From Candidatus Nanohaloarchaea archaeon (lineage in GTDB: Archaea > Nanohalarchaeota > Nanosalinia > Nanosalinales > Nanosalinaceae), in contig CP046106.1 in the NCBI GenBank assembly GCA_013343275.1, positions 480,001-544,000 of the forward strand: DNA of 64,000 bases, read 5' to 3'. The translations under genes were made by a program, and so were the position numbers. Shown here one piece after another: positions 27,331 to 62,606 of the stretch; position 1 is the stretch's first letter; each line of letters starts with the position of its first letter. A model generated the notes under the pieces. That model saw only the letters and a list, made by a program, of their open reading frames with translations. It had not been told where the DNA came from and did not search any database.

Positions 27331-28083
27331 GTGTTTAAAGCAGAAATCGAAGATGTTGGACTTCTACAGGACTCAATGAAAACCATTTCAGACCTAATCA
27401 GTGAAGGCCTATTCCAGTTAAAGGATGACGGCATTCACCTGGTTGCAGCAGACCCTGCAATGGTAGGTCTGGTAGATTTCCACATCGAAAAAGACGTATT
27501 CGAAAACTACGAACTTGATGAAGAATCAAAAGTAGGCCTAAATCTAGAAAATCTATACTCAATTCTTCGAAGAGCAAACAGCGATGACACAATTACTCTC
27601 GAAGTAAAGGACGACGAATCCAAGTTTTACATCAACATGGAAGGCCGCAGCACGAGAAACTTCTCACTGCCGATCCTCAATCTTTCAGAGGACGACATTC
27701 CTTCCACAGACCAGCTTGACTTCACATTCGAAGGAGAACTCGAGACAAAAGTTCTCGAAAGCGCTATAAAAGACGCGATGGTCGTCTCAGACTCCGTAAC
27801 AGTAACGGCCTCAAAGGACAGCATCGAGATCTCGGCAGAAGGCGACCAGTCCGATGTAGACTTCAAGATTACAGAGGACTCAGAAGGAGTACTGGAGCTT
27901 TCAGGAGAAGAGGCCAACTCAATGTTCAGCCTCGATTACCTGTCAAAGATGATCGGCGCCAAGAAACTATCAGATACAGTCACAGTCAAGATGGCCGACG
28001 AATTCCCAGTCAGACTGGAGTTCGAGATCCCAGATGAGGCCAACCTGAGCTTCGTACTGGCACCACGCATAGAAGAAGATTAA
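27331..28083 (+). CDS. pcn: PCNA sliding clamp
   Basis: AADPAMVGLV, FSLDYL and C-terminal LAPRIEE. Confidence 0.96.
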   Translation: MFKAEIEDVGLLQDSMKTISDLISEGLFQLKDDGIHLVAADPAMVGLVDFHIEKDVFENYELDEESKVGLNLENLYSILRRANSDDTITLEVKDDESKFYINMEGRSTRNFSLPILNLSEDDIPSTDQLDFTFEGELETKVLESAIKDAMVVSDSVTVTASKDSIEISAEGDQSDVDFKITEDSEGVLELSGEEANSMFSLDYLSKMIGAKKLSDTVTVKMADEFPVRLEFEIPDEANLSFVLAPRIEED

Positions 28084-28215
28084 CTTCTTTCTATGCTTAA
28101 ACCAGAAGATCTCTGATCTTCGGATCCACGCATCGAGGAAGACTAAGGCTTCTCACGTGCTCTAAGAAGCATTATTGAATGCTTCGTCACGTATTGAAGA
28201 GGATTAAACCTCTTC
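28063..28215 (+). repeat. Three synonymous copies of the PCNA 3' end separated by double-hairpin units
   Basis: CCACGCATAGAAGAAGATTAA (28063), CCACGCATCGAGGAAGACTAA (28126), TCACGTATTGAAGAGGATTAA (28187), with inverted repeats in between. Confidence 0.85.
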
Positions 28216-28265
28216 CCACCTCTTATTTTTCCTAATTTTCTCATCTAAGTAAAAAGAAAGAAAAT

Positions 28266-28952
28266 TTATTTCTCTGATTCAGCGCCGAAGTAAACTACCG
28301 AATCTAGAGGCCCAGAGAAAGCATCCTGAACCCTCTCAACCACACCAGAGAACAGTTCGGAATCTGATTCCCTGTAGGCCCCGAAAGGTATCGGGAAATC
28401 ACTCTGGACATCATAATCAAGGCCTTCCAGCCATTCTTCAACTTCTTCATCGCTGTGAAGTGTACTGCCTTCCGGCATATCATCGTTCAGGTCAGCCATC
28501 CTGCCGTTGTATAGTTTTCTGGCGCTTGACTCGCTGAACACATCGAATACAAAACCTTCCTCTGCTACACGGTTCATCTCATCAATAACTTCTTCCTCAT
28601 CCCCTACAAGGTGGAAAAGCCTTGGAGCAACTATATAATCGAATGCATCGTCCTGATAAGGGAGTCTGTGAGCATCGACACGCACAGCATCTTCCACCCG
28701 GTTATTTGCGACTGCTGCCTGAAGAGGCTCCTGCTCTATATCCGCTGCAAAATTCTCGTAATCATCCAGATACTCTGAAAGCAGTGCAGGGCCTGAGCCT
28801 AGTTCAAGTATTTTATCTCCCTGTTGTGCGCCGAGGCCTTCAAGCATCTCCTCGAAGTTGTGGTTCTGTCTCTCGAGCACCTTCTTTCCGCCGGCGGAAG
28901 AGTACCTTCTCTCTACATAGGTTTCCGGGTCTCTGTATATTTCTTCAGGCAT
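28266..28952 (-). CDS. Class I SAM-dependent methyltransferase
   Basis: LELGSGPA and DAHRLPYQDDAFD motifs. Confidence 0.85.
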   Translation of the reverse strand: MPEEIYRDPETYVERRYSSAGGKKVLERQNHNFEEMLEGLGAQQGDKILELGSGPALLSEYLDDYENFAADIEQEPLQAAVANNRVEDAVRVDAHRLPYQDDAFDYIVAPRLFHLVGDEEEVIDEMNRVAEEGFVFDVFSESSARKLYNGRMADLNDDMPEGSTLHSDEEVEEWLEGLDYDVQSDFPIPFGAYRESDSELFSGVVERVQDAFSGPLDSVVYFGAESEK

Positions 28953-29036
28953 AGAGACTGTTTACGCAGAAACTTTTTTATCTGAAATCTCGATGTGAGG
29001 CCGGGATTTTTACAGTTTCCTACCGCAATACTAACC

Positions 29037-30440
29037 ATGTCAGAGAAGGGGGGTGAGAAGAGGCCGCAGGACTGGAAGATACGCCAGTACTACGAACAGG
29101 AAGGCCTTAAGGAGAAGATTCTTGACATAGCTGAGTACCGCGAGATCGCTCCTACCTACCCAAACGGTTACGGTAAAAGGCCTGATGCCATCAACTTTCC
29201 AGGCGACTTCCAGGCCCTGGTTGAGGACGGTGCGGTCGCGTTCCATGCCTCTGTTGAGCGGTGGCGTAACCCTCTGCTGATCGACAATGTTTCTGACCTG
29301 GATCAGCTGCGTGAGGCCTGGGATCTGGTAATAGATATCGACTGCGACCACTCATTTGAACTTGCGAAAGATACTGCAGAACTTGTTCTCCGCGAACTGA
29401 AGGATCACGGTATCGAGAATATCAGTGTAAAATTCTCCGGTAACCGTGGATTCCATATCGGAGTCAGGGGGGAGGCCTTCCCTCAGGAGATCGACCAGCA
29501 GGAAATCTCCGATCTATACCCTCGGCTTCCGCGAGGAATAATTGATTACATCCGCGAGAACCTCAGAGATGAAATGGTAGAGCTAATCAAAGAATACGGC
29601 CTGGAGGAGAAGATGGAGACCGACAACGGCAGGAAGCCGTACAAGGTCTCCGATATAGAGAATGACTGGGGTCAGCGCCACCTTTTCAGAATGCCTTACT
29701 CTCTGCACGACGGTTCGTGGCTGGTATCACTGCCGATCGAAATCGACCATATACAGGACTTCGAGAAAGAAGAGGCCGAGATCGACAATGTTGAGTTCGA
29801 AACCGATTTCCTCGACGAGTATGAGGAGGGAGAGGCCACTAACCTTGCAGTACAGGCCATGGATTTCCTGGCCGAGCAGGAGGAAGAGCGGAGGGAAGAG
29901 ATCCAGAAGAAGCAGGATCGAGATTTTGAGAGGCCTGAAGATGCTATCCCCGAACAGCATTTCCCTCCTACGATAAAGAATATTCTGGAAGGCCTAGAAG
30001 ATGGCCGTAAGAGAGGTCTATTTATTCTGCTTAATTTCTACCGTACCGTTGGTTATTCATGGGAGGAGATAGAGTCTAAAATCTGGTCGTGGAATGAACG
30101 GAATAAGGAAGAGCTTGGTGAGACTTACGTGAAGTCACAGCTTCGATGGCACCGTGAGAGAAGCGAGGACGTCCCTCCCCCAAACTACGATTCAAACGGT
30201 TACTACAAGGATATGGGCGTCTATGAAGGAGATAACCTAGAGGAGCAGGTTTCCAACCCTGTAAGTTATGCTTTCCGGAAGGCCAACAGGCGCCAGAACA
30301 GTGAAGAAGATGAAGAGGAAAGCAATGAGAGCGATGAGGTTATGGAGTGTCCTTACTGCGGCAAGGAGTACAAATCCGAAGGTTATTACAAGAAGCACGT
30401 GGAGCAGTGCAACGAGGACCTAGAGGTAAAAAAGCTTTAG
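29037..30440 (+). CDS. priSL: Fused DNA primase PriS-PriL (DPANN type) with C-terminal zinc finger
   Basis: WDLVIDID, KFSGNRGFH and RMPYSLH (PriS), then FPPTIKNIL..GRKR (PriL/PriX-like), then CPYC..H..C; located between PCNA and GINS. Confidence 0.88.
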   Translation: MSEKGGEKRPQDWKIRQYYEQEGLKEKILDIAEYREIAPTYPNGYGKRPDAINFPGDFQALVEDGAVAFHASVERWRNPLLIDNVSDLDQLREAWDLVIDIDCDHSFELAKDTAELVLRELKDHGIENISVKFSGNRGFHIGVRGEAFPQEIDQQEISDLYPRLPRGIIDYIRENLRDEMVELIKEYGLEEKMETDNGRKPYKVSDIENDWGQRHLFRMPYSLHDGSWLVSLPIEIDHIQDFEKEEAEIDNVEFETDFLDEYEEGEATNLAVQAMDFLAEQEEERREEIQKKQDRDFERPEDAIPEQHFPPTIKNILEGLEDGRKRGLFILLNFYRTVGYSWEEIESKIWSWNERNKEELGETYVKSQLRWHRERSEDVPPPNYDSNGYYKDMGVYEGDNLEEQVSNPVSYAFRKANRRQNSEEDEEESNESDEVMECPYCGKEYKSEGYYKKHVEQCNEDLEVKKL

Positions 30441-30458
30441 CAGGTGTAGAGTATATAG

Positions 30459-31139
30459 ATGTCAGAAAACGCGTTAACCTTCAGCGAACTTAGAAAGATA
30501 CAGAAAGAAGAGAAAAGAGAGGAAGACCTAACAGAGCTAGGAGAAGACTTCCTGTTACGAGTATCCAACTATCTGAGATCCAAAAAAGAGAAGTCAGGAG
30601 AAGGCCGCGAATACAAGAACGCCAAAAGAGTTTTCGAGAAAATTATATCGCTCAGAGAAGACAAAGTAGTTAAAAACGCCAAGATATCGGTCAAAACAGA
30701 AGATCTAAGTTCTGACGATCTCATGCTGCCAAGAGAAAAAGAACTCTACAGGCAGCTGAAGGAAGTATTCAACGACCACAGAAACAGGATTGACGAGATA
30801 GTGGATTCAAGCAGCGAGATAGAGGAACTAGAAACGCCGGAAACTCAGCCAGAGCCAGAAGCTACCGATGAGAGCCAGGAACAGGTGGACGGAGATACAG
30901 AAGAGGAAGAACCAGAAGTAGAGAACGACGAAGACAGTAGCGAGGAACAGGAAGGTGCTGAGAGCAGTGAAGAAGACGTAGAGGAAGGATATACCAAGGT
31001 AAAAATAACTTCAGAAGTTCCAGAGTTCATGGGAACCGATCTCGAAACCTACGGGCCTTTCGATGAAGGGGAAGAAGCCAGCCTACCGGAAGACAACGCA
31101 GAAATTCTCGTAAACCGCGGTAATGCCGAAGAACTGTAA
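30459..31139 (+). CDS. GINS complex protein (GINS15/51)
   Basis: Helical A domain, acidic linker and B domain PEFMGTDLETYGPF..NAEILVNRG. Confidence 0.85.
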   Translation: MSENALTFSELRKIQKEEKREEDLTELGEDFLLRVSNYLRSKKEKSGEGREYKNAKRVFEKIISLREDKVVKNAKISVKTEDLSSDDLMLPREKELYRQLKEVFNDHRNRIDEIVDSSSEIEELETPETQPEPEATDESQEQVDGDTEEEEPEVENDEDSSEEQEGAESSEEDVEEGYTKVKITSEVPEFMGTDLETYGPFDEGEEASLPEDNAEILVNRGNAEEL

Positions 31140-31151
31140 TCTATACTAAAA

Positions 31152-31790
31152 ATGGTATCAAAAGTCTACGCTGTCAGCGGATCGTTAATAACAGAAAACC
31201 TTGACGAGCTAGGAGAACTAGCAGAGGCCCTAGAGAAGAACGAGGACCAGATACTTGTCGTTACAGGAGCTGGAGGCCTCAAAGAGTATATCTATTCTGC
31301 GGGAGAGTTCGGCAACCAGGGAGAACAGGATCTGGTTGGCATCGCGGCCACACGCCTGAATGCAAAGACCTTGATGACAGCAATGGAGGCCTACCCAGAT
31401 ACTCCTGAGACTGCCGAGGAGATCAGGACGGCGGCCTCTACCGAATTGAACGTTGTGATGGGAGGCCTTACTCCAGGCCACTCTACTGATGCTGTAGCTG
31501 CTATTGCTGCAGAGCTTCTGGAGGCCGAACTGTATATAGCCACCAGTATTGACGGAGTCTACAACAAGAATCCTGAGGCCGAGGATGCGAAGAAGCTTGA
31601 TGAGGTTACTCCGGAAGAGCTGAAAGGTATTATCGACGGGAACAACGAGGCCGGGCGTCACGAGTTGATCGATTCGACCGCTGTTGAGATAATCGAGCGT
31701 TCACGGACGGAGACCAAGATTTTTGAGGGAACATTCGAGAATATTGAGAGGCCTGGCAGTGCTGACGGCACCAGGATTGTTCATGAGTAG
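31152..31790 (+). CDS. pyrH: UMP kinase
   Basis: VVTGAGG, GIAATRLNA, PGHSTDAVAA and DGVY..NP motifs. Confidence 0.88.
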   Translation: MVSKVYAVSGSLITENLDELGELAEALEKNEDQILVVTGAGGLKEYIYSAGEFGNQGEQDLVGIAATRLNAKTLMTAMEAYPDTPETAEEIRTAASTELNVVMGGLTPGHSTDAVAAIAAELLEAELYIATSIDGVYNKNPEAEDAKKLDEVTPEELKGIIDGNNEAGRHELIDSTAVEIIERSRTETKIFEGTFENIERPGSADGTRIVHE

Positions 31791-31844
31791 TTTCAGGAGT
31801 GATGGTTCGGAGGCCTTTTAAAGTTTAATCTCGAGGGTTTTGGT

Positions 31845-32147
31845 ATGGTAAAGATTCCAAAAGAGCAGAGAAGGTACTGTCCTCACTGCGATAAGCATAC
31901 GGAGCAGACAGTGAAAGAAGTTACTAATCGCTCCACAAGCCAGATGAGCAAGAAGCACCGTAAGCGTCAGAGAAAGATCGATAACGGTTACGGATCATTC
32001 CCTTATGAGAATCCGGCGAATCGTAGCCGTGGTGGATCCAATCCTACTTCAGAGAAGAAGGATCTGCAGTTCAACTGCAAGGAATGCGGTAAATCCTGGA
32101 AACCTAGAAACGCTCTTCGAGCTGCGAAGTTCGAGATCGAACGGTGA
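31845..32147 (+). CDS. rpl44e: 50S ribosomal protein L44e
   Basis: YCPHCDKHT..CKECGK; conserved context. Confidence 0.92.
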   Translation: MVKIPKEQRRYCPHCDKHTEQTVKEVTNRSTSQMSKKHRKRQRKIDNGYGSFPYENPANRSRGGSNPTSEKKDLQFNCKECGKSWKPRNALRAAKFEIER

Positions 32148-32214
32148 TTCAATAATGACCGAAAATCAGAGATTTTCTGAGCAAGCAAAAAATCACAGAG
32201 GTGATTTTTGAATG
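32143..32214 (-). repeat. Double-hairpin unit with duplicated SD/start region upstream of rps27e
   Basis: GGTGATTCAATAATG (32143) and GGTGATTTTTGAATG (32200) flank hairpins GAAAATC/GATTTTC and CAAAAAATCAC/GTGATTTTTG. Confidence 0.75.
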
Positions 32215-32385
32215 GCAAGAAACTTTGTAAGAGTAAAATGCAGTGAATGTGGCAACGAACAGACAACTTTCTCCAGAGCATCTACAGAAGTAGAATGCCT
32301 GGTATGTGGAGAAGTTCTCGCGAAGCCAACCGGCGGAAAAGCCGAGTTCCCTGGCGAAGTAGTTCGAGAACTTTCAGTAGAATAA
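32212..32385 (+). CDS. rps27e: 30S ribosomal protein S27e
   Basis: Hand translation [44 protein letters not shown]... Confidence 0.95.
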
Positions 32386-32471
32386 ATTTTCCCTTCTACT
32401 TACTCCCTATCCTAATTTTTACTTTCTAACAGTTCGATTCTCTTTTAAAAATCACTTATCATCATTTCTCT

Positions 32472-33227
32472 ATGCGCTGGTACAAAGACAAACCTGATGA
32501 AGGAGACTTCGTAGTAATAACCCTGACGGACGTAGACAAGAACTCTGCATACGCAGATCTGGACGAATACGAAGACCTGACAGGCCTGATCCACATCTCG
32601 GAAGTATCAAGATCCTGGATCCAGGACATCAGAAAAGAACTGAGCGAAGGCGAAAAGACAGTTGCACAGGTAGTAGATACCGAAGACGACAACATCAGCC
32701 TTTCCATCAAGAGAGTAAACGATAATCAGAAAAGAGAAAGCATGGCCCGATGGAAAAAAGAACAGAAGGCCGAAAGCTTTGTAGAAGAACTAGCCGACAA
32801 ACTAGACCGCGACAAAGAAGATTTATTCGACGAAGTAGTCTTCCCTATGCAACGCGAGTTCGGATCCAGCTTCCACGGCTTTGAAATCGCAGAGGCCCGC
32901 GAAGAAGAACTGCAGGAGCTTTTCGACGAAGAAGTAGTGGATGCCATCCAGGAAGTGGCCCGCGAGAATATTAATTTGAAGCAGGAGAAGCTTGAAGGAG
33001 AGCTGGAGATTGCCTTCGATCAGAGCGATGGAGTCGAGCGTTTGAAAGATGCTCTTTCCGAAGTTGAAGAAGGTGTCGAGATAAAGTATGTTTCCGCTCC
33101 AACGTACTCCATCACAGCTTGGGGCCGCACACAGGAGCTGGCGAAGAAGAGAATGGACGAGTCTGTTCGAACTATCCGAGAAAAAGCCGAGGACATGGAT
33201 GGAGAGTTCGAGTTCAACAGGGCATAG
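32472..33227 (+). CDS. eif2a: Translation initiation factor aIF2 alpha
   Basis: S1 domain GLIHISEVSRSWI..LSIKRV, and YVSAPTY. Confidence 0.93.
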   Translation: MRWYKDKPDEGDFVVITLTDVDKNSAYADLDEYEDLTGLIHISEVSRSWIQDIRKELSEGEKTVAQVVDTEDDNISLSIKRVNDNQKRESMARWKKEQKAESFVEELADKLDRDKEDLFDEVVFPMQREFGSSFHGFEIAEAREEELQELFDEEVVDAIQEVARENINLKQEKLEGELEIAFDQSDGVERLKDALSEVEEGVEIKYVSAPTYSITAWGRTQELAKKRMDESVRTIREKAEDMDGEFEFNRA

Positions 33228-33231
33228 TCCG

Positions 33232-33375
33232 ATGATTAAAAAGTGTCCGAACTGCAATTCTTACACGTTGAAGGACGAGCACTGCGGTGAAGAGACGGAG
33301 AGCGCAAGGCCTCCGAAGTTCTCATTTCCCGATAGTTACGGAGAGTACCGCAGAAAAATGAAGAAACAGTCCTGA
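33232..33375 (+). CDS. nop10: H/ACA RNP protein Nop10
   Basis: MIKKCPNCNSYTLK..PPKFS..YGEYRR. Confidence 0.9.
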   Translation: MIKKCPNCNSYTLKDEHCGEETESARPPKFSFPDSYGEYRRKMKKQS

Positions 33376-33395
33376 AACCAAAGGTGTACAAATTA

Positions 33396-34175
33396 ATGGG
33401 AAAGACTAAGATCCAGATGACTGCTGAACAGGAAACAGAAAACCCTCTATTTATCGAAGGGCTTGCAGGAGTAGGCCATATAGGCCGGAACAGCGTAAGC
33501 TATATTGCAGAGAAGATGGGTGCCAGAAAGATCGGCGAGATCTCATCATCACATTTCCCTCCTTATGCAATCGTCAGCGACGAGAAAACAGTACAGACTA
33601 TCAAGAACGAGATTTACGAGCTCGAGAGGGAAGATCAGCAGGATATTGTATTCCTTGAAGGAAACGCGCAGGCCAACAACCCTGAAGGCCATCACGAAGT
33701 AGCAGACAAAGTTATGGATCTCGTTGAACAGGTGGGCGCCACTGAGATCGTGACTGTAGGCGGCTACGGAACCGGAGATGTAGTTGAGGAACCCGATGTA
33801 ATGGGGGTAACTACTGAAGAAGAACTTCAGGAGAAGTACGGAGAATACGATATTACTTTCGAACACGATGTAGAACAGGTTGTCGGAGTATCAGGCCTTC
33901 TGCTCGGTCTTGCACAGGAAAGAGGTTATGAAGGAATATGTATACTTGGAGAGACTCCTGGCTTCCTCTTGAGCGATCCAAAATCCACCGAGACTGTTAT
34001 CAAGGTGATCGAGAGCATAATTGATGCAGATCTTGACTTCACAGACCTTGACGAAAAGGTTGAGGAGTCTCAGGAGATTCTTAAAAAGATTAGGAACCTG
34101 AAAGATAAACAGGGACAGGGCCAGGACCAGGATGGTCAAAAAGGACAGGCTCCTGACCTGGGATACATAGGTTGA
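33396..34175 (+). CDS. PAC2 family proteasome assembly chaperone
   Basis: [17 protein letters not shown] and GETPG..DPKS motifs; follows nop10. Confidence 0.88.
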
Positions 34176-34182
34176 TACACAA

Positions 34183-34347
34183 ATGAAAGACTACACAAGA
34201 TACGAGAAGGCCCGAATTCTGGGAGCAAGAAGCCTGCAGATAGCGATGGGCGCACCATCTTTCGTCGAATCCAGCGATAAAGAGAATCCGATAGACATAG
34301 CGAAGAAGGAGATGGAGGACGACAAGCTTCCGATCACAGTCAAATAG
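34183..34347 (+). CDS. rpoK: RNA polymerase subunit K (Rpo6)
   Basis: Hand translation [31 protein letters not shown]. Confidence 0.95.
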
Positions 34348-34390
34348 GGAATACCCTATTTTTTATTCCACTTTTCTCAATTAACTCTAC

Positions 34391-35512
34391 ATGGAACTCC
34401 GAAATATAGAGCTCAGAGAGATAATCGATTCAAGAACAAAACCTACCGTAGAGGCCGAAGTAAACAACTCTTACGGGAAAGCGCCTTCCGGAGCATCAAC
34501 CGGCACACACGAGGCCAAATGCTTCGTACCAGATCACCTGGAGCATGTAGAAGAACTTGTCCAGAAACTGGAAGGTCGCGACCTCTCACAGCAGGAGTTC
34601 GACCAGGAACTGCATAAAATCGATGGTACAGAAGACTTCTCGCGGCTAGGGGCTGCGGCTATAGCATCGAGCTTCGCATTCAAAAACGCCGACGGATTCG
34701 AAAACACAGAAAACTTTCCACTGCCGCTGAGCAACGTGATCGGCGGGGGAGAGCACGGAGGAAACACCAGTATCCAGGAGTTCCTAGTACTGCCTGTAAA
34801 CGCCGACACATTTCCAGAGGCCTTAGAGACCAACCGAAAAATCTATCAGGAGCTTAAAGAGCGGTACGCCTCGAAGATCAAGGGTATCAACGATGAAGGA
34901 GCATTAATCACATCTATGGATGATGAGGCTACACTAAAAGCGCTGAAGAAAGTTGCAGACAAGCATGAGGCCCGTATAGGCCTGGATATTGCAGCTTCAG
35001 AGTTCTACTCTGATGGAGAGTACAGAATGACCTCTCTGGGCGAGACTCATACTGCCGAGGAGCATCTGGATTTTGTTCAGATGTTGATCGATGAGTTTGA
35101 ACTAGTCTACGTTGAAGATCCTTTCGATCAGGAAGACTTCACCATGCACGCCAAGCTTACGCGCCAGAATCCAGAAGTCATGATCTGCGGTGACGACCTC
35201 TTTACCACTGATAAGGAGAGGCTGCAGCAGGGAATTGAACAGGACTCATGCAACTCTCTGATCGTCAAACCTAACCAGATCGGAACAGTAACCGATGCAA
35301 GAGAAACCGTGGAACTCGCCAAAGAAAACGACTATACCCCGGTAATCTCACACAGATCAGGAGAGACCTGCGACCACACGATCAGCGACCTGGCCCTGGA
35401 ATGGGAGTGCCCTGTAATCAAGGCCGGAATCGCAGACATAAGAATTGCAAAACTGAACAGGCTGCTCAGACTGTGGGACAAATCCGACAGACCAGAGATC
35501 AATATGGCCTGA
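34391..35512 (+). CDS. eno: Enolase
   Basis: PSGASTG, EDPF, GDDL, KPNQIGT and SHRSGET motifs. Confidence 0.93.
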   Translation: MELRNIELREIIDSRTKPTVEAEVNNSYGKAPSGASTGTHEAKCFVPDHLEHVEELVQKLEGRDLSQQEFDQELHKIDGTEDFSRLGAAAIASSFAFKNADGFENTENFPLPLSNVIGGGEHGGNTSIQEFLVLPVNADTFPEALETNRKIYQELKERYASKIKGINDEGALITSMDDEATLKALKKVADKHEARIGLDIAASEFYSDGEYRMTSLGETHTAEEHLDFVQMLIDEFELVYVEDPFDQEDFTMHAKLTRQNPEVMICGDDLFTTDKERLQQGIEQDSCNSLIVKPNQIGTVTDARETVELAKENDYTPVISHRSGETCDHTISDLALEWECPVIKAGIADIRIAKLNRLLRLWDKSDRPEINMA

Positions 35513-35554
35513 ACAATCGAGCCGTATTTAATATTTGTCTTTAAATAGCCGTGT

Positions 35555-36184
35555 ATGAGCGAAGAGGAAAACATGCTGGTCGATCGAGAACAGTACCTTG
35601 CCAATGGAGTCCACATTGGAACCAAGGCCCAACACACATCAATGGACAAGTACATCTTCCACGTAAAGAAAAACCAGTTGGCAGTTCTCAACCTTGAAGA
35701 CACAGATAAACAGATAAGAAAAGTCGCAGAAGTACTTGAAGACTACGATCCAGAAGAAATACTAGTTGTAGGTCGTACAGAACAGGCCCGTACACCAATC
35801 AAGGCATTCAGCGAAGCAATCGGATCCGAACTTATCGACGGACGTTTCATGCCAGGAACACTGACAAATCCAGAGTCGGAGAACTTTGTGGAGCCTGAAA
35901 TCGTAGTAGTATCTAATCCTGAAGAAGATGCACAGGCTATTCAGGAAGCACAGGATACCAATATTCCTGTAGTAGCTATCGCAGACTCTGAGAACGAAAT
36001 TGGGGAAATAGACTACGTTATCCCTGCAAACAACAAGGCAGAGAACTCTCTAGGCCTTGTCTACTTCCTTCTAGCTCGAGAGATCGCTGAGAACAAGGGA
36101 GAAGAGTTCAACTACGAGGTTTCTGACTTCGGCGCAGAGATCAAGGAAGCCGAGCCAGAAGAAGGAGACTCGGAAGAAGAGTAG
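35555..36184 (+). CDS. rps2: 30S ribosomal protein S2
   Basis: GVHIGT, GRFMPGTLTN and IPANNK motifs. Confidence 0.95.
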   Translation: MSEEENMLVDREQYLANGVHIGTKAQHTSMDKYIFHVKKNQLAVLNLEDTDKQIRKVAEVLEDYDPEEILVVGRTEQARTPIKAFSEAIGSELIDGRFMPGTLTNPESENFVEPEIVVVSNPEEDAQAIQEAQDTNIPVVAIADSENEIGEIDYVIPANNKAENSLGLVYFLLAREIAENKGEEFNYEVSDFGAEIKEAEPEEGDSEEE

Positions 36185-36331
36185 AATATCTTTTCTCCTG
36201 TCCTCGTCATCTCTTTTTCTATATTAACTGCAGGCCTCTAATTTCCGGTACGTAGTTCTTCTGTAACGCATTCTGATTGTATCTGTGACGGGTTTATTTA
36301 AACCGGCAGCGCGGTATAATACCATAGGGCT

Positions 36332-54104: not shown

Positions 54105-54122
54105 CTCTATCTTTCCACGGTG

Positions 54123-54140
54123 ACTGAATGTTCGTTCAGT
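54123..54140. promoter_or_regulatory. Candidate TetR operator
   Basis: ACTGAA-TGTTCG-TTCAGT inverted repeat between tetR and the divergent RND operon. Confidence 0.65.
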
Positions 54141-54175
54141 TTCTTAAGTCTACGGATCTTAAGAAATGAATAGTG

Positions 54176-55279: not shown

Positions 55280-56475
55280 ACGGAAAAGTAGATAGAGCAC
55301 TTGAAAAATACTCCGATACTATCGAAAGCAGGCCTCTAACAGTTCTTGCAGTAGCAGTCATGGCAACCGCTGTACTGGCCTCCGGAGCTTCCAAAGTTCA
55401 GACAGAGCAGATGAGTCAGGAAGACCTGCTGCCGGATTCAATGCCTACCATGGAGGCCTTCAGCGTGATAAGCTCCGAGTTCTCGACAGCTTCAGGAACC
55501 AGTTACACAATACTTATTGAGACCGCACCACAGTACCCTAACTCGACAGAGATAAGAGATCTCCGGCAACCGGAGGCCCTGAGATTTATGAAGGCTGTCT
55601 CCGATGATCTAAGCTCCAGAGATAAGATCAGTTCAGTATCCGGGCCTTCAGATCTGTTCCGAGGAAGTATTCCGTCCAGCAAGACCAGGGTTGACCAGGC
55701 CTTCAGAACTCTGGGCGAAGCGAGATGGAGCAACTACGTCTCCAGCGACTACACTGCAGCAATTATGCGTGTGGATACTGTTGAGATGTCGACATCTGAG
55801 CAGATGCAGCTGGCAAATCAGATAAGACAGACCGTCAGATCACACGAGAAACCTGCAGGTCTGGATATAAGCTATACAGGTCAGCCATTTATCGACAAGG
55901 CCTTCCAGCAGCAGACGCAGAAAACTATGAGTATAACAGGAGCTGCGGCCCTCCTGGGAGTGATTCTGGTAGTGGTTCTTCTTTTCCGGTCGCTTTTCTA
56001 CGGATTTACCTCTCTGCTCACACTGGTATTTGGAGTCACAGCAGGTTTCGGTATCTTCGGCTGGCTGGGCCTTAATATGAGTCCTGCAACATCCGGTGCA
56101 ATCACAATGGGTATCGGAGTCGCGATAGACTTCGGAATCCAGCCAATATCACGGTACATAGAGGAAAGAGAGAACTTTGGGATAGAGAAATCTCTGGAGG
56201 AAACTATCAAAGGCATTGTAACACCGATGACAGTGGGCCTCATCGCTGCAAACATCGGTTTCCTGTCGCTCAACGTTGGCAGAGTTACATTCCTCTCAGA
56301 TCTTGGAACATTGCTTACATTGACGACTACAATGGCCTACGTTGCGGCATTCACAGTTATTCCTTCCTCGCTCGTAATTTACGATCGCTACTTCACCAGA
56401 AACGGGACTTCAGGCTTTACTTTATCTAAAATTACCGGAAATTCGGAAAACAGTACTAAAGGTGAATCACAATAA
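55276..56475 (+). CDS. MMPL/RND transporter, half-size
   Basis: GIGVAIDFG..RYIEER; same topology as the preceding gene. Confidence 0.85.
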   Translation: MNGKVDRALEKYSDTIESRPLTVLAVAVMATAVLASGASKVQTEQMSQEDLLPDSMPTMEAFSVISSEFSTASGTSYTILIETAPQYPNSTEIRDLRQPEALRFMKAVSDDLSSRDKISSVSGPSDLFRGSIPSSKTRVDQAFRTLGEARWSNYVSSDYTAAIMRVDTVEMSTSEQMQLANQIRQTVRSHEKPAGLDISYTGQPFIDKAFQQQTQKTMSITGAAALLGVILVVVLLFRSLFYGFTSLLTLVFGVTAGFGIFGWLGLNMSPATSGAITMGIGVAIDFGIQPISRYIEERENFGIEKSLEETIKGIVTPMTVGLIAANIGFLSLNVGRVTFLSDLGTLLTLTTTMAYVAAFTVIPSSLVIYDRYFTRNGTSGFTLSKITGNSENSTKGESQ

Positions 56476-56476
56476 A

Positions 56477-57676
56477 ATGAAAACGAAAGCACTAGCTTTA
56501 ATCACGGCTGCTGCGCTTCTCATGGGCGGAGCTGCAGCACAGACTCAAGACAGCCCACAACTCAATGCAATTCTGATTAACACAGATCCTGCTCCTGTAC
56601 AGTCAGGAGAAGACGCAGAGATAACTTTCAAGATACGGAACAGCGGCGGCGCTACTGCTGAAGACGTAGAGGTTGGATTAGTTGACTCCTTCCCTTTCCA
56701 GCTTAAACCAGACAGGAAGAGGACCTACAGCATCGGAGATATAGGGCCTAGCGATGGAATACAGCTTCCGACGTACGAGGTCCTTGTAGCGGAGAATGCT
56801 CCGGACGGCTCGAACAAGCTGAAGCTGCGGATTTCCCGGGGAGATCTTTCCTACACCGAGACGATCCCTATCCAGGTGCAGAGCCAGGATATAGAGCTTA
56901 ATCTGGCCAATCTGCAGACAGTTCCAACGCAGCTGACACCAGGAACGGAGAACGCAAAAATGGTTGTGGAAGTAGTTAACAACGGTGAGAAAACCGCTGA
57001 AAACGTGGTAGTTGATGTAGGCCTTCCTGAAAGCTTCCAGAAGACCTCCAGCTTCTCTACCCGGCAGGCAATCGGAAATCTGGGTCCTGGACAGGTGAAG
57101 AAGGCGGAGTTCACGTTCGATATACAGAAAACGGCAGAGAAAGGAACTGTAAGGATCCCTACAAACATCACCTACACGACAGGAGAATCAAACAACAGGA
57201 TAACGGAGAGCGCCAACTTCAGATTCCACCTGGCCGGCAAACCACAGTTCAAGGTAGTGGATGTAGAAAGCAACTTGAAGACTGGTGGTACAGGTCAGCT
57301 AAGGATTACAGTGAAGAACACTGGTTCAGAACAGGCCTCTTCAAGCCGTATCAGGGTTCTGGACTCATCTGATCTTCCTTTCAGCTATGATTCTGCAAGC
57401 CATTACATTGGGACACTTGAGCCAGACCAGAATGGGACTGTTGTGTTCGATGTTACAGCAGGGCCAGATGCTGTGGCGAAGAACTACCTGCTTGACTTCG
57501 AGATCCGGGGCGTCAAAGACACCCAGACATATGTAGAGAGCACGACAGTCAAAGTCGACATCGCAGAAGGAGACAGAGATTCAGGCCTTCCTCTCCCGAT
57601 TATAGCAGCTGCACTACTAGCAGCCGCCGGCGCATACATCTTCCGGGAGAAAATTGCAGAGACCCTCAGCAGGTAA
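56477..57676 (+). CDS. COG1361-like exported Ig-fold protein with C-terminal anchor
   Basis: Signal peptide, three CARDB-like repeats (N.G...A..V...IG.L.P) and a C-terminal TM. Confidence 0.8.
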   Translation: MKTKALALITAAALLMGGAAAQTQDSPQLNAILINTDPAPVQSGEDAEITFKIRNSGGATAEDVEVGLVDSFPFQLKPDRKRTYSIGDIGPSDGIQLPTYEVLVAENAPDGSNKLKLRISRGDLSYTETIPIQVQSQDIELNLANLQTVPTQLTPGTENAKMVVEVVNNGEKTAENVVVDVGLPESFQKTSSFSTRQAIGNLGPGQVKKAEFTFDIQKTAEKGTVRIPTNITYTTGESNNRITESANFRFHLAGKPQFKVVDVESNLKTGGTGQLRITVKNTGSEQASSSRIRVLDSSDLPFSYDSASHYIGTLEPDQNGTVVFDVTAGPDAVAKNYLLDFEIRGVKDTQTYVESTTVKVDIAEGDRDSGLPLPIIAAALLAAAGAYIFREKIAETLSR

Positions 57677-57755
57677 AAACCCAGGCCTCTATTTCCCTTT
57701 TTTCTTCAAATTTTTCTGGCTGCATCTAAAAAGATTCGCGGCGTAAAAACCAAGT

Positions 57756-58940
57756 ATGAACCCGGAGAAAATCAGGAAGGACTTCCCAATTTTCCAGGAA
57801 AGATCTGAACTCAGCTATCTTGACAATGCTGCAACCACGCAGAAACCAGAGGTAGTGACGCAGACGGTAAAGAATTTCTACGAGAAGAAGAACGCCAATG
57901 TTGGGCGAGGACTCTACGATCTCTCCCATGAGGCAACTGAGGCATACAGAGAGGCCCGTATAAAGGTCGCGGACTTCATAAATGCGTCAACGCCTGACGA
58001 AATAGTTTTCGTACGGAACACAACTGAGGCCTACAACCTTGTAGCCGAATCACTCGACTTCATGGGAGACATAGTTGTGGGAGAGATGGCACACCACAGC
58101 GAGCAGCTGCCTCTGAGAAAGAACGCGAACAGACACGGTAAAGAGGTGAAATACATAGAAACAGAAAACGGAAAGCTAAGTGTGGAATCCGCAGAGAAGC
58201 TTATAGACCATGAGACAGGCCTTGTATCTATATCTCACATGTCGAACGTGTTCGGAGCAGAGAACCCGGTAGATGAGATAATCGAGATCGCCAAGGCCCA
58301 CAATGCTATCGTTCTCCTGGACGGCGCCCAGTCAGTACCAAGAATGCCTGTAGACGTAAAGGAGCTGGACGTAGATCTCATGGCTTTCTCAGGACATAAA
58401 ATGCTTGGCCCAACCGGTATCGGCGTACTGTACGGTAAGAAACATGTGCTTGAAAGCATGGAGCCATACCAGGTAGGGGGAGGAATGATCAAGTCAGTAA
58501 GCAAGGAGTCCGCAAGCTGGGAGGACCCTCCAGAAAAATTCGAGGCTGGAACCCCGAACGTGGCAGGCGCAGTAGGCCTCGGTGCTGCGGTAGACTACCT
58601 CAATCAGCTGGACATGGAAGAGGTAAAGCAGCATGACATCGAATTAACCAGTAAAATGATTGAAGGCCTGGAAGAGATTGAAGGTATCGAGGTTCTTTCT
58701 CCTGAAGGATCAAGCCTGGTATCTTTCACAGCTGACTGGGCGCATCCGCATGACGTCGCAGAGGTTTTGAACCAGCATGAAGTCGCTGTGAGGGCCGGCC
58801 ACCACTGCGCACAGCCGCAGATGGAGGAACTTGACATCAATGGCAGTACCCGGGCATCACCATACATCTACAATACGGAAGAAGACGTGGAAAAATTCCT
58901 GGAAGGCGTTAAAGAAGCTAGAGAGGTCTTCAAGAGGTAG
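57756..58940 (+). CDS. sufS: Cysteine desulfurase SufS
   Basis: YLDNAATTQKP, FSGHKMLGPTG and RAGHHCAQP motifs. Confidence 0.95.
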   Translation: MNPEKIRKDFPIFQERSELSYLDNAATTQKPEVVTQTVKNFYEKKNANVGRGLYDLSHEATEAYREARIKVADFINASTPDEIVFVRNTTEAYNLVAESLDFMGDIVVGEMAHHSEQLPLRKNANRHGKEVKYIETENGKLSVESAEKLIDHETGLVSISHMSNVFGAENPVDEIIEIAKAHNAIVLLDGAQSVPRMPVDVKELDVDLMAFSGHKMLGPTGIGVLYGKKHVLESMEPYQVGGGMIKSVSKESASWEDPPEKFEAGTPNVAGAVGLGAAVDYLNQLDMEEVKQHDIELTSKMIEGLEEIEGIEVLSPEGSSLVSFTADWAHPHDVAEVLNQHEVAVRAGHHCAQPQMEELDINGSTRASPYIYNTEEDVEKFLEGVKEAREVFKR

Positions 58941-58947
58941 CCAGATA

Positions 58948-59298
58948 ATGTACAGAGAAGAAATCTTAGACCACTACAAGAGGCCGCGTAACGAAGGCTC
59001 TCTGGAGACAGAGTACGAGGCCGAAGGAGATAATTCCAGCTGCGGCGATCATACCCATGTCTACCTGGATGTAGAGTACGGAGAAGTCAAGGATATGAAG
59101 CATGAGACCGATGGCTGCGCGATCTGTACTTCCGCCACCTCAATTCTATCCGAGGAAATAAGCGGGATGAGCATTGAAGAAGTCGAACAGCTTGACAGAG
59201 ACTGGATGATTGATACTCTCGATATAGAGGTATCTCCTATGAGAGTAAAATGCGCAATGCTGGGCCTGAAAACAGCTCAGAAAGCGCTTGAAAAGTAA
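58948..59298 (+). CDS. sufU: SufU/IscU-like scaffold protein
   Basis: MYREEILDHY..NSSCGD..GCAIC..RVKCA. Confidence 0.9.
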   Translation: MYREEILDHYKRPRNEGSLETEYEAEGDNSSCGDHTHVYLDVEYGEVKDMKHETDGCAICTSATSILSEEISGMSIEEVEQLDRDWMIDTLDIEVSPMRVKCAMLGLKTAQKALEK

Positions 59299-59301
59299 AA
59301 A

Positions 59302-59592
59302 TTATTTCTCTACGGCCAGCACGTATCTCTCGCCGCCGTCAACAACACTACTACTGCGGGCCTTCAGCTCCCGACCCAGATCATGGAACTCATCGGCAAT
59401 ATCATCTTCTGCTTCCAGCTCAAGATATACGAAGTCTTCATCCTCAAATATTCTGTCCTGCAGATCGTAGTCACTCCACATACTATCGTACTCTATGGCT
59501 TCTTCAACAATTTTCTCTTTACTACCTGCTTCTTCAGCGTATTCGTTTGTAAGCACAAAATTTCTCCTCGAGAAATATGTGATGGCAGGCAA
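59302..59592 (-). CDS. Hypothetical acidic protein
   Basis: 96 aa acidic ORF with TTG start, opposite strand within the suf genes. Confidence 0.5.
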   Translation of the reverse strand: MPAITYFSRRNFVLTNEYAEEAGSKEKIVEEAIEYDSMWSDYDLQDRIFEDEDFVYLELEAEDDIADEFHDLGRELKARSSSVVDGGERYVLAVEK

Positions 59593-59656
59593 ATTACTTA
59601 TATGGATAGGCTGGAGGAGGATCGGCCTTAAGAAATTTTAGGCCTACCTAATCTGT

Positions 59657-60412
59657 ATGAGTCTAGAAGTCAAAAATTTGGAAGTATCTGTAGAGGAAGA
59701 AGAAATTGTCAGAGGAGTATCCCTGGAGATAGAGCCAGGAGAAATCCACGCGATCATGGGGCCTAACGGCTCAGGAAAGTCTACTCTATGTAAATCCCTG
59801 ATGGGTAACCCTACATACTCCATTGATGGAGGAGAAATCCTGGTTGATGGAGAAGATGTAACCGATGAGGAAACAGATGAGAGAGCACGTGAAGGCCTTT
59901 TCCTCGGATTCCAGTACCCGGCAGAGATATCAGGTATCTCCGTCGCAGAGTTCCTGAAAGAAGCAATCGACGCCCGCAGAGAGGAAGAAGGTAAAGACGC
60001 AATGCCTCAGAGCGAGTTCAATGAGCTTCTCCGTGAAAAGCTGGATCTCCTGGACATGGACGAAGAGTATGCTCGCCGATACCTGAACGAAGGATTTTCC
60101 GGTGGGGAGAAGAAGCGGAATGAGATCCTGCAGATGGCAGTGCTCGAGCCGAAGTACGCAATCCTTGACGAGATCGATTCAGGCCTCGATATCGACGCGC
60201 TGAAGGTAGTTGCGAAAGGTATCAACAAGCTAGCGGATGAGGACCAGGGCATCCTGATGATCACACACTACCAGAGAATCCTTGACTACGTCGAACCCGA
60301 CAGAGTTCACGTCATGGTCGACGGAAAAATAGTCGAATCAGGCGGAGCAGAACTAGCCGAGAAACTTGAAGAAGAGGGCTACGACTGGGCTAAAGAGCAA
60401 ATGGAAGAATAG
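59657..60412 (+). CDS. sufC: Fe-S cluster assembly ATPase SufC
   Basis: GPNGSGKST, FQYP, FSGGEKKRNE and THYQRIL motifs. Confidence 0.96.
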   Translation: MSLEVKNLEVSVEEEEIVRGVSLEIEPGEIHAIMGPNGSGKSTLCKSLMGNPTYSIDGGEILVDGEDVTDEETDERAREGLFLGFQYPAEISGISVAEFLKEAIDARREEEGKDAMPQSEFNELLREKLDLLDMDEEYARRYLNEGFSGGEKKRNEILQMAVLEPKYAILDEIDSGLDIDALKVVAKGINKLADEDQGILMITHYQRILDYVEPDRVHVMVDGKIVESGGAELAEKLEEEGYDWAKEQMEE

Positions 60413-60414
60413 TT

Positions 60415-61065
60415 CTATTTCTTCCTCATTTTCAGGAAAAGATGATCTTTCTCGTAAGGTTCAAGCCTTACTTCATCTAAAACATCAAAACTCTCCTTCA
60501 ATTTCTCTCTAGCCTCTTCAAAGACCTCTTCCGGATCTCTGGATGAGGAAATTGACTGAGCCTTTATAGCGATAAGGCCTACTCCATTTTCTTTGAGGAA
60601 TTTCTCTGCGTTCTTGTTGAAGATTTCAGGTTGATCTCTCTGAGAGATATCCTGGAATACAACATCTACTTCCGGCACCAAATCTTCGTAGTCCTCAGGC
60701 TTCCTTGCGTCTGCTATTATTGGTGCAATATTCTCACGGCTATCTGCTACCTTAACCAGATCTCTACCAACGGTTTCTGAGTACTCAACTGCAAAGACGA
60801 AGCCTTCCTCCAGAATATCGGAGAAATGTGATACAGTAGTTCCCGAAGCGGCACCAAGATAGAGTACATCATCACTCTGAGATAGGTCTAGGTCTATACC
60901 ATTCTTTACTGCTGCTGCAACTTTTGACCTGTTTGCATGCCAGGCCCTGTACTCTACACCATCAATCTCCTGCAGAGACTCTCCATAGACTTTCTCACCA
61001 GGAACCTGATTCTTAGTATACAGATTATCGTTTTGTGAGAAGATTCCAGGCTGTATTTCCTCCAT
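60415..61065 (-). CDS. flpA: Fibrillarin 2'-O-methyltransferase
   Basis: VYGE..YRAW..RSK, VLYLGAASGTTVSH and LEPYEKDH motifs. Confidence 0.95.
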   Translation of the reverse strand: MEEIQPGIFSQNDNLYTKNQVPGEKVYGESLQEIDGVEYRAWHANRSKVAAAVKNGIDLDLSQSDDVLYLGAASGTTVSHFSDILEEGFVFAVEYSETVGRDLVKVADSRENIAPIIADARKPEDYEDLVPEVDVVFQDISQRDQPEIFNKNAEKFLKENGVGLIAIKAQSISSSRDPEEVFEEAREKLKESFDVLDEVRLEPYEKDHLFLKMRKK

Positions 61066-61067
61066 AT

Positions 61068-61838
61068 CTACTCGGCCTCTTTCAGTTCTTCATACTTTTC
61101 GCGGGCCTTCTCCCTGTACTCCGATCCTTTCTCTTTGTCGCTGTACTGGTCGACTCGTGCAGCCATAGCTGCTTTGTTAGCCAGGAAACGGGCCATCTTC
61201 CCGCGTTTATCTTCTGGCAAAGTGTTGACGTATTCGTGCTCGAAGATTATTCCATGCTTCGGCGGAGTTCCCTCTCCTCTCAGATACCGGAACAATGCCT
61301 TCTCGGCGCCGAGCATCTGGATTGTGGAAGCAGGTTTCTTCGCCAGTTCTTCAAGGCCTCCCGCCAGCGACATCAGCCTTGCAGCCAGAAGAGGGCCTAG
61401 AAGAGTGGAAATATTGGACGCGTTCTGCTTCATGGCCTCTTCGACGTAGTCCTCCAGCTCGTCCATCGTTTCCTGCTTGTTCTTCAGCATTTCGAACGAT
61501 TTCTCCAGCATCTCCAGGTCTTCCTCCTGCAAGGCCTTTCCTGTAGATTCCTCTGCCAGAGATTCGAATCCCTTGACCTCTTCTCTCTTCAGGCCTCCTT
61601 TCGACAGTATCTTCAGGATATGTTCGTCTTCAGAAAGCTCGTTCATCAATTCGGGAAAGTAAATCGAGTACCAGTCCTTGAATCTCTCGAACTCGTCCTG
61701 AAAGCTTCCATTGGCTTCATCCAGCATTTTTACGGCCTTGATAACTAGCTGGTCTTTATCTGCTTCCTCCCGCAGCTGCGACTTCGCTCTCTCCAGAGCC
61801 TTTTCTCTCTTATCGTTTTTATCTGTCAACCTGGTCAC
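61068..61838 (-). CDS. nop5: C/D RNP protein Nop5 (short form)
   Basis: WYSIYFPEL and PASTIQMLGAEKALF..PKHGIIF..RGKMARFLA. Confidence 0.93.
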   Translation of the reverse strand: MTRLTDKNDKREKALERAKSQLREEADKDQLVIKAVKMLDEANGSFQDEFERFKDWYSIYFPELMNELSEDEHILKILSKGGLKREEVKGFESLAEESTGKALQEEDLEMLEKSFEMLKNKQETMDELEDYVEEAMKQNASNISTLLGPLLAARLMSLAGGLEELAKKPASTIQMLGAEKALFRYLRGEGTPPKHGIIFEHEYVNTLPEDKRGKMARFLANKAAMAARVDQYSDKEKGSEYREKAREKYEELKEAE

Positions 61839-62226
61839 CTAGGCCCATTATTCTGAGCTGCATTTCAACTGCTCGCGGACTTCTATCCAGTTCCTCGGCT
61901 ATCTCGTCAACTGTTTTAGCCTGGTAATTCTGTAGAATGAATTTTTCCTCGGTACTGGAGAAGCTGCCATGGTCTTCTCTCTGGAAATCTTTCTCTCCTT
62001 TCAGAAACTCCTCCATTTCCTCGTTATCCATACTTGTACGGTTCTGAGCCAGGAACTCCAGCTCTTCACTGCTCCAGTTAGTATTTTTGGAGTTGGCCTC
62101 CGACTCAAGTTTTTCATCGAACTCATTCGACTTATCCAGTTCGAAGCCTTCAGAGCCTCCGAACTCTTCCTTAAGCATATCGCGAGTTGAATCAACCAGT
62201 TGATCCTCAAAGTTTTCCTCTTCCAT
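61819..62226 (-). CDS. Hypothetical protein with two Myb/SANT-like repeats
   Basis: WSSEELEFLAQN.. and FSSTEEKFILQNY..EIAEELDRSPRAV. Confidence 0.6.
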   Translation of the reverse strand: MEEENFEDQLVDSTRDMLKEEFGGSEGFELDKSNEFDEKLESEANSKNTNWSSEELEFLAQNRTSMDNEEMEEFLKGEKDFQREDHGSFSSTEEKFILQNYQAKTVDEIAEELDRSPRAVEMQLRIMGLGDQVDR

Positions 62227-62336
62227 AACAAGGTACTGTCCTCTAAAGTTTGAAAACCTTACCGCAAGGCCAACCTCACAAAACATCGAGGTATTTAAGA
62301 AAATAACCGAATAAACCTAGCATACAGTTCCAACGT

Positions 62337-62408
62337 GCGGTGTTGGTCCAGTGGCTAAGACCCCGGCCTTCCAAGCCGGTGACCCGGGTTCAAATCCCGG
62401 ACGCCGCA
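62337..62408 (+). tRNA. tRNA-Gly(TCC)
   Basis: GCGGTGT..ACGCCGC-A acceptor stem, CCGGC-CT-TCC-AA-GCCGG anticodon arm, GGTTCAAATCC T-loop. Confidence 0.95.
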
Positions 62409-62606
62409 AATTTCTCTGGAATTTGCTTGATTAAGAAAATCTCCTGATTTTCGGACGCCGCAAAACTTCTGAAAGTTTTATCATCATAAGCCATGCACTG
62501 CATGGCTTCCGGATTTAGCAGAAGATTTCTAATCTTCGGCACCGCATCCAGAAACATTTCCTTTGCTACTCTAACTTTCGATAGGAAGTTCATGTAGGTT
62601 CCAGAG
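62398..62606 (+). repeat. Repeated tRNA-Gly 3' ends separated by hairpin units
   Basis: CGGACGCCGCAAA at 62398 and 62452, CGGCACCGCA at 62537; at least five inverted repeats in between. Confidence 0.85.

Follow-up and report, generated by a model that had tools for sequence, protein, structure and literature searches.

The window analysed here, 64,000 nt long, comprises bases 480001-544000 of the genome of a Candidatus Nanohaloarchaea archaeon (assembly GCA_013343275.1, contig CP046106.1; hereafter G000), a single contig of 915,886 bp that is free of N and has a G+C content of 47%. At three distant places in it, the end of the PCNA gene, the junction between the ribosomal protein genes rpl44e and rps27e, and the 3′ end of tRNA-Gly(TCC), lie very short units made of two adjacent hairpins, which together with further copies elsewhere in the genome are the subject of this work. 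A sequence-only reading of the window had pointed out four hairpins of this kind, which indeed lie where it placed them, and its identification of PCNA, S27e and tRNA-Gly is confirmed by Pfam for the proteins and by ARAGORN and Rfam for the tRNA (Table 1). It had also taken the hairpins for scattered copies of a very small, non-autonomous insertion element, a proposal borne out by the 30 double-hairpin units that we picked by hand from hairpin scans of G000, and by the filled and empty sites found among relatives. We regard these units as probably representing a family of 45-60-nt non-autonomous mobile insertions of fixed polarity, which persist only where the signals of the affected genes stay intact.

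Our comparisons draw on a set of 31 related genomes of the same order, labelled from G000 upward. G001 is a complete congener, likewise a single contig without N and about 84% identical to G000 over alignable DNA, G002 is a third congener and G016 belongs to a different genus; analysed locus records carry L numbers. The strict pattern used for the first hairpin was GAARATY-N3-4-RATYTTC, with the reversed pattern as control.

All units, 45-60 nt in size, share one polarity. On the strand opposite to the PCNA and tRNA examples, they run from a start codon through a first hairpin (hairpin A), a linker of 5-12 nt that frequently has GCA at its end, a second hairpin (hairpin B) and a few bases to the start codon of the real gene. 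The consensus of hairpin A on that strand is GAAAATC, a purine-rich loop of 3-4 nt and GATTTTC, forming a 7-bp stem, while hairpin B is in most copies a family-typical GAAAACAC-loop-GTGTTTTC or a near variant, whose loop and 3′ arm hold the Shine-Dalgarno (SD) motif GAGGTG. The sequence-only reading had described a constant hairpin, always trailed by GG, beside a target-specific one. A target-specific partner exists at the PCNA and tRNA ends only, since most copies carry the family-typical hairpin with the SD, and the GG is not universal, GT, GA, AT and TG being found after hairpin A as well. The stem of hairpin A shows both-sided, pair-keeping changes in three of its seven pairs among 13 aligned copies (MAFFT put hairpin B out of register), and the RNA folds reach z values against shuffles of -5.0 for PCNA, -2.7 for tRNA-Gly, -1.9 for rps27e and -4.0 for positions 62476-62541, around the second tRNA-Gly unit. 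The fixed polarity, the stem covariation and the G-T pairs that some of the stems contain suggest that what is recognised is a single-strand fold. Relative to transcription, units are found in both orientations.

Table 1. Genes and double-hairpin units at the three loci of the window (ORF, open reading frame; SD, Shine-Dalgarno)
Feature	Position	Strand	Parts	Basis
PCNA gene	27331..28083	+	last 7 codons and stop 28063-28083 (gene-end copy 1)	Pfam PCNA_N/PCNA_C
PCNA unit 1	28084..28125	+	arm antisense to gene end 28084-28096; linker TTAAACCA; hairpin A GAAGATC-TCT-GATCTTC 28105-28121; GGAT	sequence, fold
Displaced PCNA-end copy 2	28126..28160	+	CCACGCATCGAGGAAGACTAA, with decaying antisense arm	sequence
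PCNA unit 2	28161..28215	+	linker TCTAA; hairpin GAAGCAT-TATTGA-ATGCTTC 28166-28185; GT; gene-end copy 3 28188-28207; arm	
rpl44e	31845..32147	+	stop TGA 32145-32147; upstream of rps27e unit	Pfam Ribosomal_L44
rps27e start-site unit, type 2, 57 nt	32155..32211	+	ATG 32155; hairpin A 32161-32177; linker; hairpin B 32187-32209 with SD GAGGTGAT; TGA 32209-32211	sequence, fold
rps27e	32212..32385	+	ATG directly after mini-ORF stop	Pfam Ribosomal_S27e
tRNA-Gly(TCC)	62336..62409	+	3′ end GGACGCCGCAAA 62399-62410 (copy 1)	ARAGORN, Rfam
tRNA-Gly unit 1	62406..62464	+	hairpin GCAAATT-TCTCTGG-AATTTGC 62406-62426; linker TTGATTAA; hairpin A 62435-62452; second tRNA-end copy 62453-62464	
tRNA-Gly unit 2 (older)	62488..62546	+	hairpin AAGCCATGCA-CTG-CATGGCTT; linker; hairpin A GAAGATT-TCT-AATCTTC 62521-62537; diverged tRNA-end copy GGCACCGCA	

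The strict pattern followed by GG matches nine times in the whole of G000, where simple arithmetic gives about 0.01 matches by chance, and without the GG it marks 17 sites in the 916-kb genome. At 12 of these 17 sites a further hairpin, with 7 bp or more, lies within 2-16 nt, compared with 13.7% of 5000 random positions. The strict hairpin A occurs in 24 of the 31 genomes, with no match to the reversed control, so that a scan of the genome and its relatives does yield the further copies that the sequence-only reading had anticipated. Among the seven genomes that lack it, four are 91-99% complete (two of them 96-99%) and three are 61-87% complete. When the window and 20 loci were compared with Rfam at gathering score, only tRNA, rRNA and RNase P matched, and none of its families covers the units. 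Readings as C/D-box or H/ACA RNAs, K-turns, bulge-helix-bulge introns or terminators were set aside as judged by eye only, the stems being of 7 bp and no pocket, box pairs or T-run being noticed.

The case for mobility comes from orthologous loci. The flanks of 26 of the 30 units are colinear in G001, and alignment of these loci for empty sites, proposed earlier as a check, found hairpin A absent from 19, present at five and ambiguous at two. At 18 of the 19 empty sites the G001 locus is shorter by 41-64 nt, and by 118 nt at the remaining one, 417202; the empty sites are plain SD-spacer-ATG junctions. In the reverse comparison, seven of the 11 hairpin A sites of G002 are empty in G000. One set of copies, the six type-1 cores of G000, have a mean identity of 82% while their flanks stay at the background of about 50%, and all six sites are empty in G001, a pattern that resembles a recent burst. 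At unit 120914 of G000, G001 has a different segment of 871 nt.

The rpl44e/rps27e junction was compared in 30 genomes of the order. No unit stands there in 27 of them, and it is filled only in G000 and G002, with a type-2 unit, and in G016, with a type-1-like one; the presence of different unit types in different genera therefore indicates two independent gains at a single junction. Metagenome contigs at least 85% alike span the same junction minus exactly 57 nt, one form joining inside a 7-nt repeat, and other contigs are without one or other of the PCNA units, so that both filled and empty forms are covered. Units can therefore also be lost, via their flanking repeats.

The family had been thought to aim at gene termini, which holds for the PCNA and tRNA ends; its main habitat is rather gene starts and intercistronic junctions, as 16 of the 30 units lie between two co-directional ORFs. 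In 15 of these 16, a mini-ORF of 14-19 codons runs from a start codon at the left edge through both hairpins, and its stop is placed -1, +2 or +3 nt from the downstream start (15/16), in the forms ATGA or GTGA, TAATG and TGA-ATG. The same stop/start arrangement arises in 3.2% of shuffles of those stretches. An intercistronic unit thus carries its own start codon, its own SD (in hairpin B) and its own stop codon. The frame in which hairpin A is read differs by type, giving MKIADFR.. in type 1 and M.ENQRFS.. in type 2; with two frames through one hairpin, what is conserved must therefore be the fold of the nucleic acid, on which the need for an open frame is superimposed.

The unit before rps27e exemplifies this arrangement, with a mini-ORF of 18 codons, MTENQRFSEQAKNHRGDF. 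It had been presented as another rebuilt gene end, which it is not: it lies after rpl44e and upstream of the rps27e start, and it is the SD/ATG region, not the gene end, that is repeated and rebuilt there. Where the target has no ATG at the join, the insert starts with a start codon and holds its own SD and stop, as in unit 26758 and in two units of G002 (L139 and L141), which have their own TTG start and are placed between SD and ATG. The function of the affected gene is kept at each insertion, as had been claimed. The repeats at start sites measure 0 to 8 nt, vary from site to site (ATG, AATG, TAATG, ATGAC, AATGAT, AATAATGA) and often read ..ATG(A); they may represent microhomology rather than true duplication.

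At gene ends, the duplications pointed out earlier are real. The PCNA end (CCACGCAT..TAA) occurs three times in G000, each copy followed by an antisense arm; copy 2 matches copy 1 at 18 of 21 positions, all three differences being synonymous, and the third copy, which had been overlooked, is more diverged. Copy 2 and its arm are homologous to the functional end and arm of G001, where the gene is followed by the distal unit with the GAAGCAT hairpin only. G001 therefore presents an empty site for the GAAGATC unit, and the same unit 1 is absent from one metagenome contig variant. Unit 2 is present in G000 and G001 alike, similarly built units occur in G008, G006 and G010, and the direct repeat in G008 matches at 31 of 35 positions. 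A hairpin also spans the PCNA stop codon in several genera that lack units altogether. The simplest reading is therefore that the target-specific arm is the end hairpin of the gene itself, which is probably native and was duplicated along with the target. With the arm belonging to the target, the piece truly inserted at PCNA would amount to about 27-30 nt, that is, the linker, hairpin A and 1-4 bases.

In two records from metagenome-assembled genomes (MAGs), the PCNA stop is immediately followed by a run of N, at 1050-1149 of L179 (100 N) and at about 1068-1163 of L180, and strain differences in units may break assemblies after PCNA. A 57-nt PCNA duplication in G002 (L179), considered as a third state of the locus, was discarded as an overlap across the 100-N scaffold gap at 1050-1149.

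The tRNA-Gly(TCC) gene shows the same behaviour. Its first unit ends in an exact second copy of the last 12 nt, GGACGCCGCAAA, and like-built units follow this tRNA in G015, G004, G005, G008 and G024. In G015 the last 15 nt are present three times, G024 shows a tandem repeat of 81 nt and G003 a diverged end copy. Arrays at tRNA-Gly are seen in six other genera in all. The displaced copy always comes directly after hairpin A plus 1-2 bases, and its start varies from 10 to 27 nt from the tRNA end. Further units of G000 flank tRNA-Gly(GCC), tRNA-Pro, tRNA-Cys and tRNA-Arg. In a Nanohalobium record (L224), the end of a thermosome-like gene is present in three copies, and what had seemed a CRISPR-like array there is this triplicated gene end. 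Structural RNA is also reached, as the RNase P RNA gene of G000 holds one unit, missing in G001, inside a stretch that the Rfam model treats as a local insertion of 120 nt.

The hairpin is not restricted to nanohaloarchaea. A species-representative genome collection was searched for the exact 19-mer formed by hairpin A (loop AGA) and a following TG, which matched in 105 stretches, and the reversed string in none. The 80 loci listed among these stretches comprise 11 with Nanohaloarchaea-type names, 10 from other DPANN (Woese-, Pace-, Nano- and Aenigmatarchaeota), 22 from Methanosarcinales, two with Methanobacteria-type names, nine from unnamed archaea and 26 from Bacteria. Exact flank repeats of at least 9 nt stand beside the hairpin at eight of 82 matches, including records of Nanoarchaeia and Aenigmatarchaeota, versus one in an offset control. 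About 13 of the listed Methanosarcinales loci have common wider flanks, indicating a multi-copy repeat. Viral contigs gave no match to the 19-mer, and our literature search turned up neither a description of such elements from nanohaloarchaea or DPANN nor a paper with the hairpin sequence.

Some of these distant contexts deserve separate mention. The Methanosarcinales repeat combines several hairpins with the 19-mer (L190, L192, L205, L207, L218, L230, L246, L248, L251), and in the reversed copies of L247 and L256 the loop again reads AGA, so that the loop is turned round with respect to its flanks. In records of Woesearchaeota and Methanosarcinales (L200, L212, L228, L240, L244, L263, L253), the hairpin lies upstream of a tRNA T-arm and acceptor-like end (..GGCAGTTCGAATCTGCCCGGGGCTA); neither ARAGORN nor Rfam called a tRNA in these contexts, which could be element-interrupted or split tRNA genes. 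In bacterial records (Nitrospirota, Thermodesulfovibrio, Clostridia; L193, L195, L209, L211, L222, L257), the hairpin is extended toward a 12-bp stem, mostly CCCCA..TGGGG.

How a mobile insertion of this kind would remain harmless can be outlined as follows. In the intercistronic setting, the cassette would land at or just before the downstream start codon, and the old SD and start would then drive the mini-ORF of 14-19 codons through both hairpins. This mini-ORF would stop on or next to the new start codon, served by the new SD shown in hairpin B, and downstream translation would be kept by re-initiation or direct initiation, as the arrangement of signals suggests. At the 3′ ends of protein genes and tRNAs, insertion would be accompanied by a gene-end duplication of 7-35 nt, the functional copy staying beside hairpin B, often the gene's own end hairpin, and the displaced copy beside hairpin A. 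Repeated hits would push older copies outward and so build arrays, from which recombination between copies would remove units, and tolerant loops of structural RNAs, such as RNase P RNA, would also accept the element. A factor acting in trans would presumably recognise hairpin A as a single-strand fold; staggered or microhomology-guided joining may produce the variable flank repeats, and templated correction of imperfect palindromes would explain the arms that match constrained targets. The mover would not be a Y1/HUH enzyme encoded in these genomes.

Several candidate movers were in fact considered. The window had shown no transposase, and the wider search agrees: Y1_Tnp (PF01797), the Y1/HUH domain, is found in none of the 31 genomes and in six of 14 control genomes, which leaves the proposed link to REP/REPIN or IS200/IS605 unsupported. 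TnpB is above cut-off in six of the 31 genomes, not in G000 or G001, and is present in the hairpin-free G014 and G018, while DDE_Tnp_1 matched G006 only among five genomes tested; neither tracks the units. A tyrosine recombinase fits poorly as well, as G016 has units and no PF00589 match; serine recombinases were not searched. The sole tyrosine recombinase above cut-off in G000 lies outside the window at 123875-124510, near a partial tRNA match (122163-122200) and unit 120914, in a region that may be an integrated element.

A retroelement-mobilised repeat resembling short interspersed nuclear elements was likewise rejected, because RVT_1 is confined to one of the 31 genomes, G000, where the gene, with an Avd gene beside it, is part of a diversity-generating retroelement (DGR). 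This DGR lies outside the window at 207541-210680 (L289 42-3180), with a reverse transcriptase of 331 amino acids and an Avd match of 100.6 bits (cut-off 80); the gene upstream encodes a 333-amino-acid protein with weak matches to FGE-like domains (GldK/EgtB). Nor are the units classical miniature inverted-repeat transposable elements (MITEs), having two separate hairpins instead of terminal inverted repeats, and flank repeats of 0-35 nt without a fixed target-site duplication (TSD).

Several points weigh against a family of mobile insertions. No mobilising enzyme for the units was found among these candidates. The flank repeats measure 0-8 nt at gene starts and 7-35 nt at gene ends, a range that no single known transposition chemistry gives. 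A generic double-hairpin descriptor yields 71 matches in the genome and 35 in a shuffled genome; because it is too permissive the unit list was made by hand, and the unit counts rest on the strict hairpin A pattern plus this curation. At most single sites, gain and loss cannot be told apart, and several units are old and conserved. Thus, tRNA-Gly unit 2 has homologues in G002 (L138) and G015, that is, across genera, and is therefore old; unit 802121 differs between G000 and G001 at two of about 57 positions while its flanks differ by 10-15%; and at 425218 both congeners have a double hairpin with different sequences, a kept structure that fits selection for structure, i.e. a host function.

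The last two sites also speak for the alternative that the units are a host-selected RNA module, in which hairpin A would be the site for a conserved archaeal RNA-binding protein or nuclease (for stabilisation, 3′-end formation or translational coupling), units being kept, and perhaps spread by gene conversion, for their regulation of operons and tRNA trailers, with mobility secondary. The sequence of hairpin A, beyond its fold, is conserved across the order and further, all units lie in probably transcribed regions, and hairpin B has the SD in its loop and 3′ arm; moreover, PMC10266531 reports four unknown, highly expressed two-hairpin non-coding RNAs in a cultivated nanohaloarchaeon. We nevertheless consider this explanation unlikely, since the 19 empty sites in the congener have intact orthologous genes, no unit is needed between rpl44e and rps27e in the 27 genomes where that junction is empty, and the two orientations relative to transcription would give RNA loops reading AGA in one set and UCU in the other. 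Strict hairpin A is also missing from nearly complete genomes among the seven without it, and the repeated origin of a 50-nt module would itself require an insertion mechanism.

The tandem direct repeats of the tRNA and PCNA 3′ ends, and the one tyrosine recombinase of G000, could instead be taken to mean that gene-end-targeting integrative elements left duplicated ends as arrays of att scars, with the hairpin as the remaining element terminus, an idea already raised by the sequence-only reading. We judge it very improbable: just 26-70 nt separate these repeats, without any cargo remnant; most units stand at start codons with the short repeats described above; the recombinase match is lacking in G016, which has units; and the same cassette lies within RNase P RNA. 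Local misassembly or scaffolding at repeats, which would find some footing in the N runs after PCNA and in the apparent duplication of L179, is scarcely credible as the cause, as the assemblies of G000 and G001 each consist of one contig free of N, independent assemblies show units at the same orthologous sites, and filled and empty forms both occur on independent metagenome contigs.

Among known systems, the nearest described behaviour is that of mitochondrial double-hairpin elements (DHE) and repetitive hairpin-forming elements (RHE). According to PMC2800124, the DHE of Allomyces mitochondria, for which it cites Paquin et al. 2000, lack flanking duplications and were proposed to use an RNA intermediate. 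DHE and other RHE, such as the yeast GC clusters, are like our units very short and mobile with two hairpins, differ in presence between close relatives, occupy intergenic sites or variable parts of structural RNA genes and have no known mover (PMC2800124). Unlike our units, they are organellar, a built-in start/SD/stop cassette has not been described for them, and neither duplicated gene ends nor arrays are reported; they are unrelated to our units in sequence, the likeness being one of behaviour only.

The REP/REPIN sequences with their RAYT and the IS200/IS605-derived PATEs are also short, hairpin-bearing, non-autonomous repeats, often located between operon genes, with a strand-specific hairpin being recognised. 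They make no fixed target duplication; in our units, 0-8 nt are repeated at start sites and 7-35 nt at tRNA and PCNA ends. However, their defining Y1/HUH gene was found in none of the 31 genomes, TnpB does not track the units, and long gene-end duplications are foreign to that chemistry. Correia/NEMIS, ERIC and BOX MITEs and the Rickettsia palindromic elements are small non-autonomous insertions tolerated within transcription units, and some of these give promoters or processing sites or insert in frame. Our units differ in having neither element-spanning terminal inverted repeats nor a fixed TSD, and a complete mini-cistron of start, SD and stop on the next start is, as far as our searches go, not known from any described MITE. 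Integrative elements that restore 3′ ends share with the units the duplicated gene end flanking the insert and the tandem build-up at one gene end, whereas the units are short inserts (26-70 nt) without integrase or cargo, mostly not at gene ends. Among miniature hairpin mobile elements, we see three traits as unusual: the self-contained translational cassette, the gene-end rebuilding arrays and the hairpin conserved across distant archaea.

Beyond a family of mobile insertions as such, we would tentatively suggest that the units may represent a new class of archaeal mobile element, a mini-cistron of about 50 nt with its own start, ribosome-binding site and stop, which would let it enter the space between an SD and any ORF without being polar. 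Its mover would recognise a hairpin of 17-19 nt common to Nanohaloarchaea, other DPANN and Methanosarcinales, and the same machinery would make the long duplications by which the ends of tRNA and protein genes are rebuilt. The host genomes are smaller than 1.1 Mb, almost fully coding and nearly devoid of insertion sequences, and yet a mobile element with rapid turnover would have reached PCNA, tRNAs, RNase P RNA and operons of ribosomal proteins in them. Such an element would illustrate how the parasite of a streamlined genome can stay harmless, by bringing the very translation signals that it displaces, and its sites offer natural test cases for termination-reinitiation and SD presentation in archaea. 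A conserved hairpin without a known transposase would point to an undiscovered mobilisation mechanism, or to a hairpin-binding factor common to distant archaea. On the practical side, the units appear to break MAG assemblies and can mislead the annotation of gene starts.

Finally, some observations concern tRNA genes themselves. In six genomes, matches to tRNA-Gly are split at position 38/39 by 60-190 nt (G011:C40, G006:C6, G012:C1, G027:C13, G025:C1 and G029:C1), and in G029 the 3′ half of tRNA-Gly matches twice, which suggests introns and half-gene duplications. In the window, Rfam matches a tRNA over 143 nt at 17424-17566 on the minus strand, next to tRNA-Val and unreported by ARAGORN, which is probably an intron-containing tRNA.

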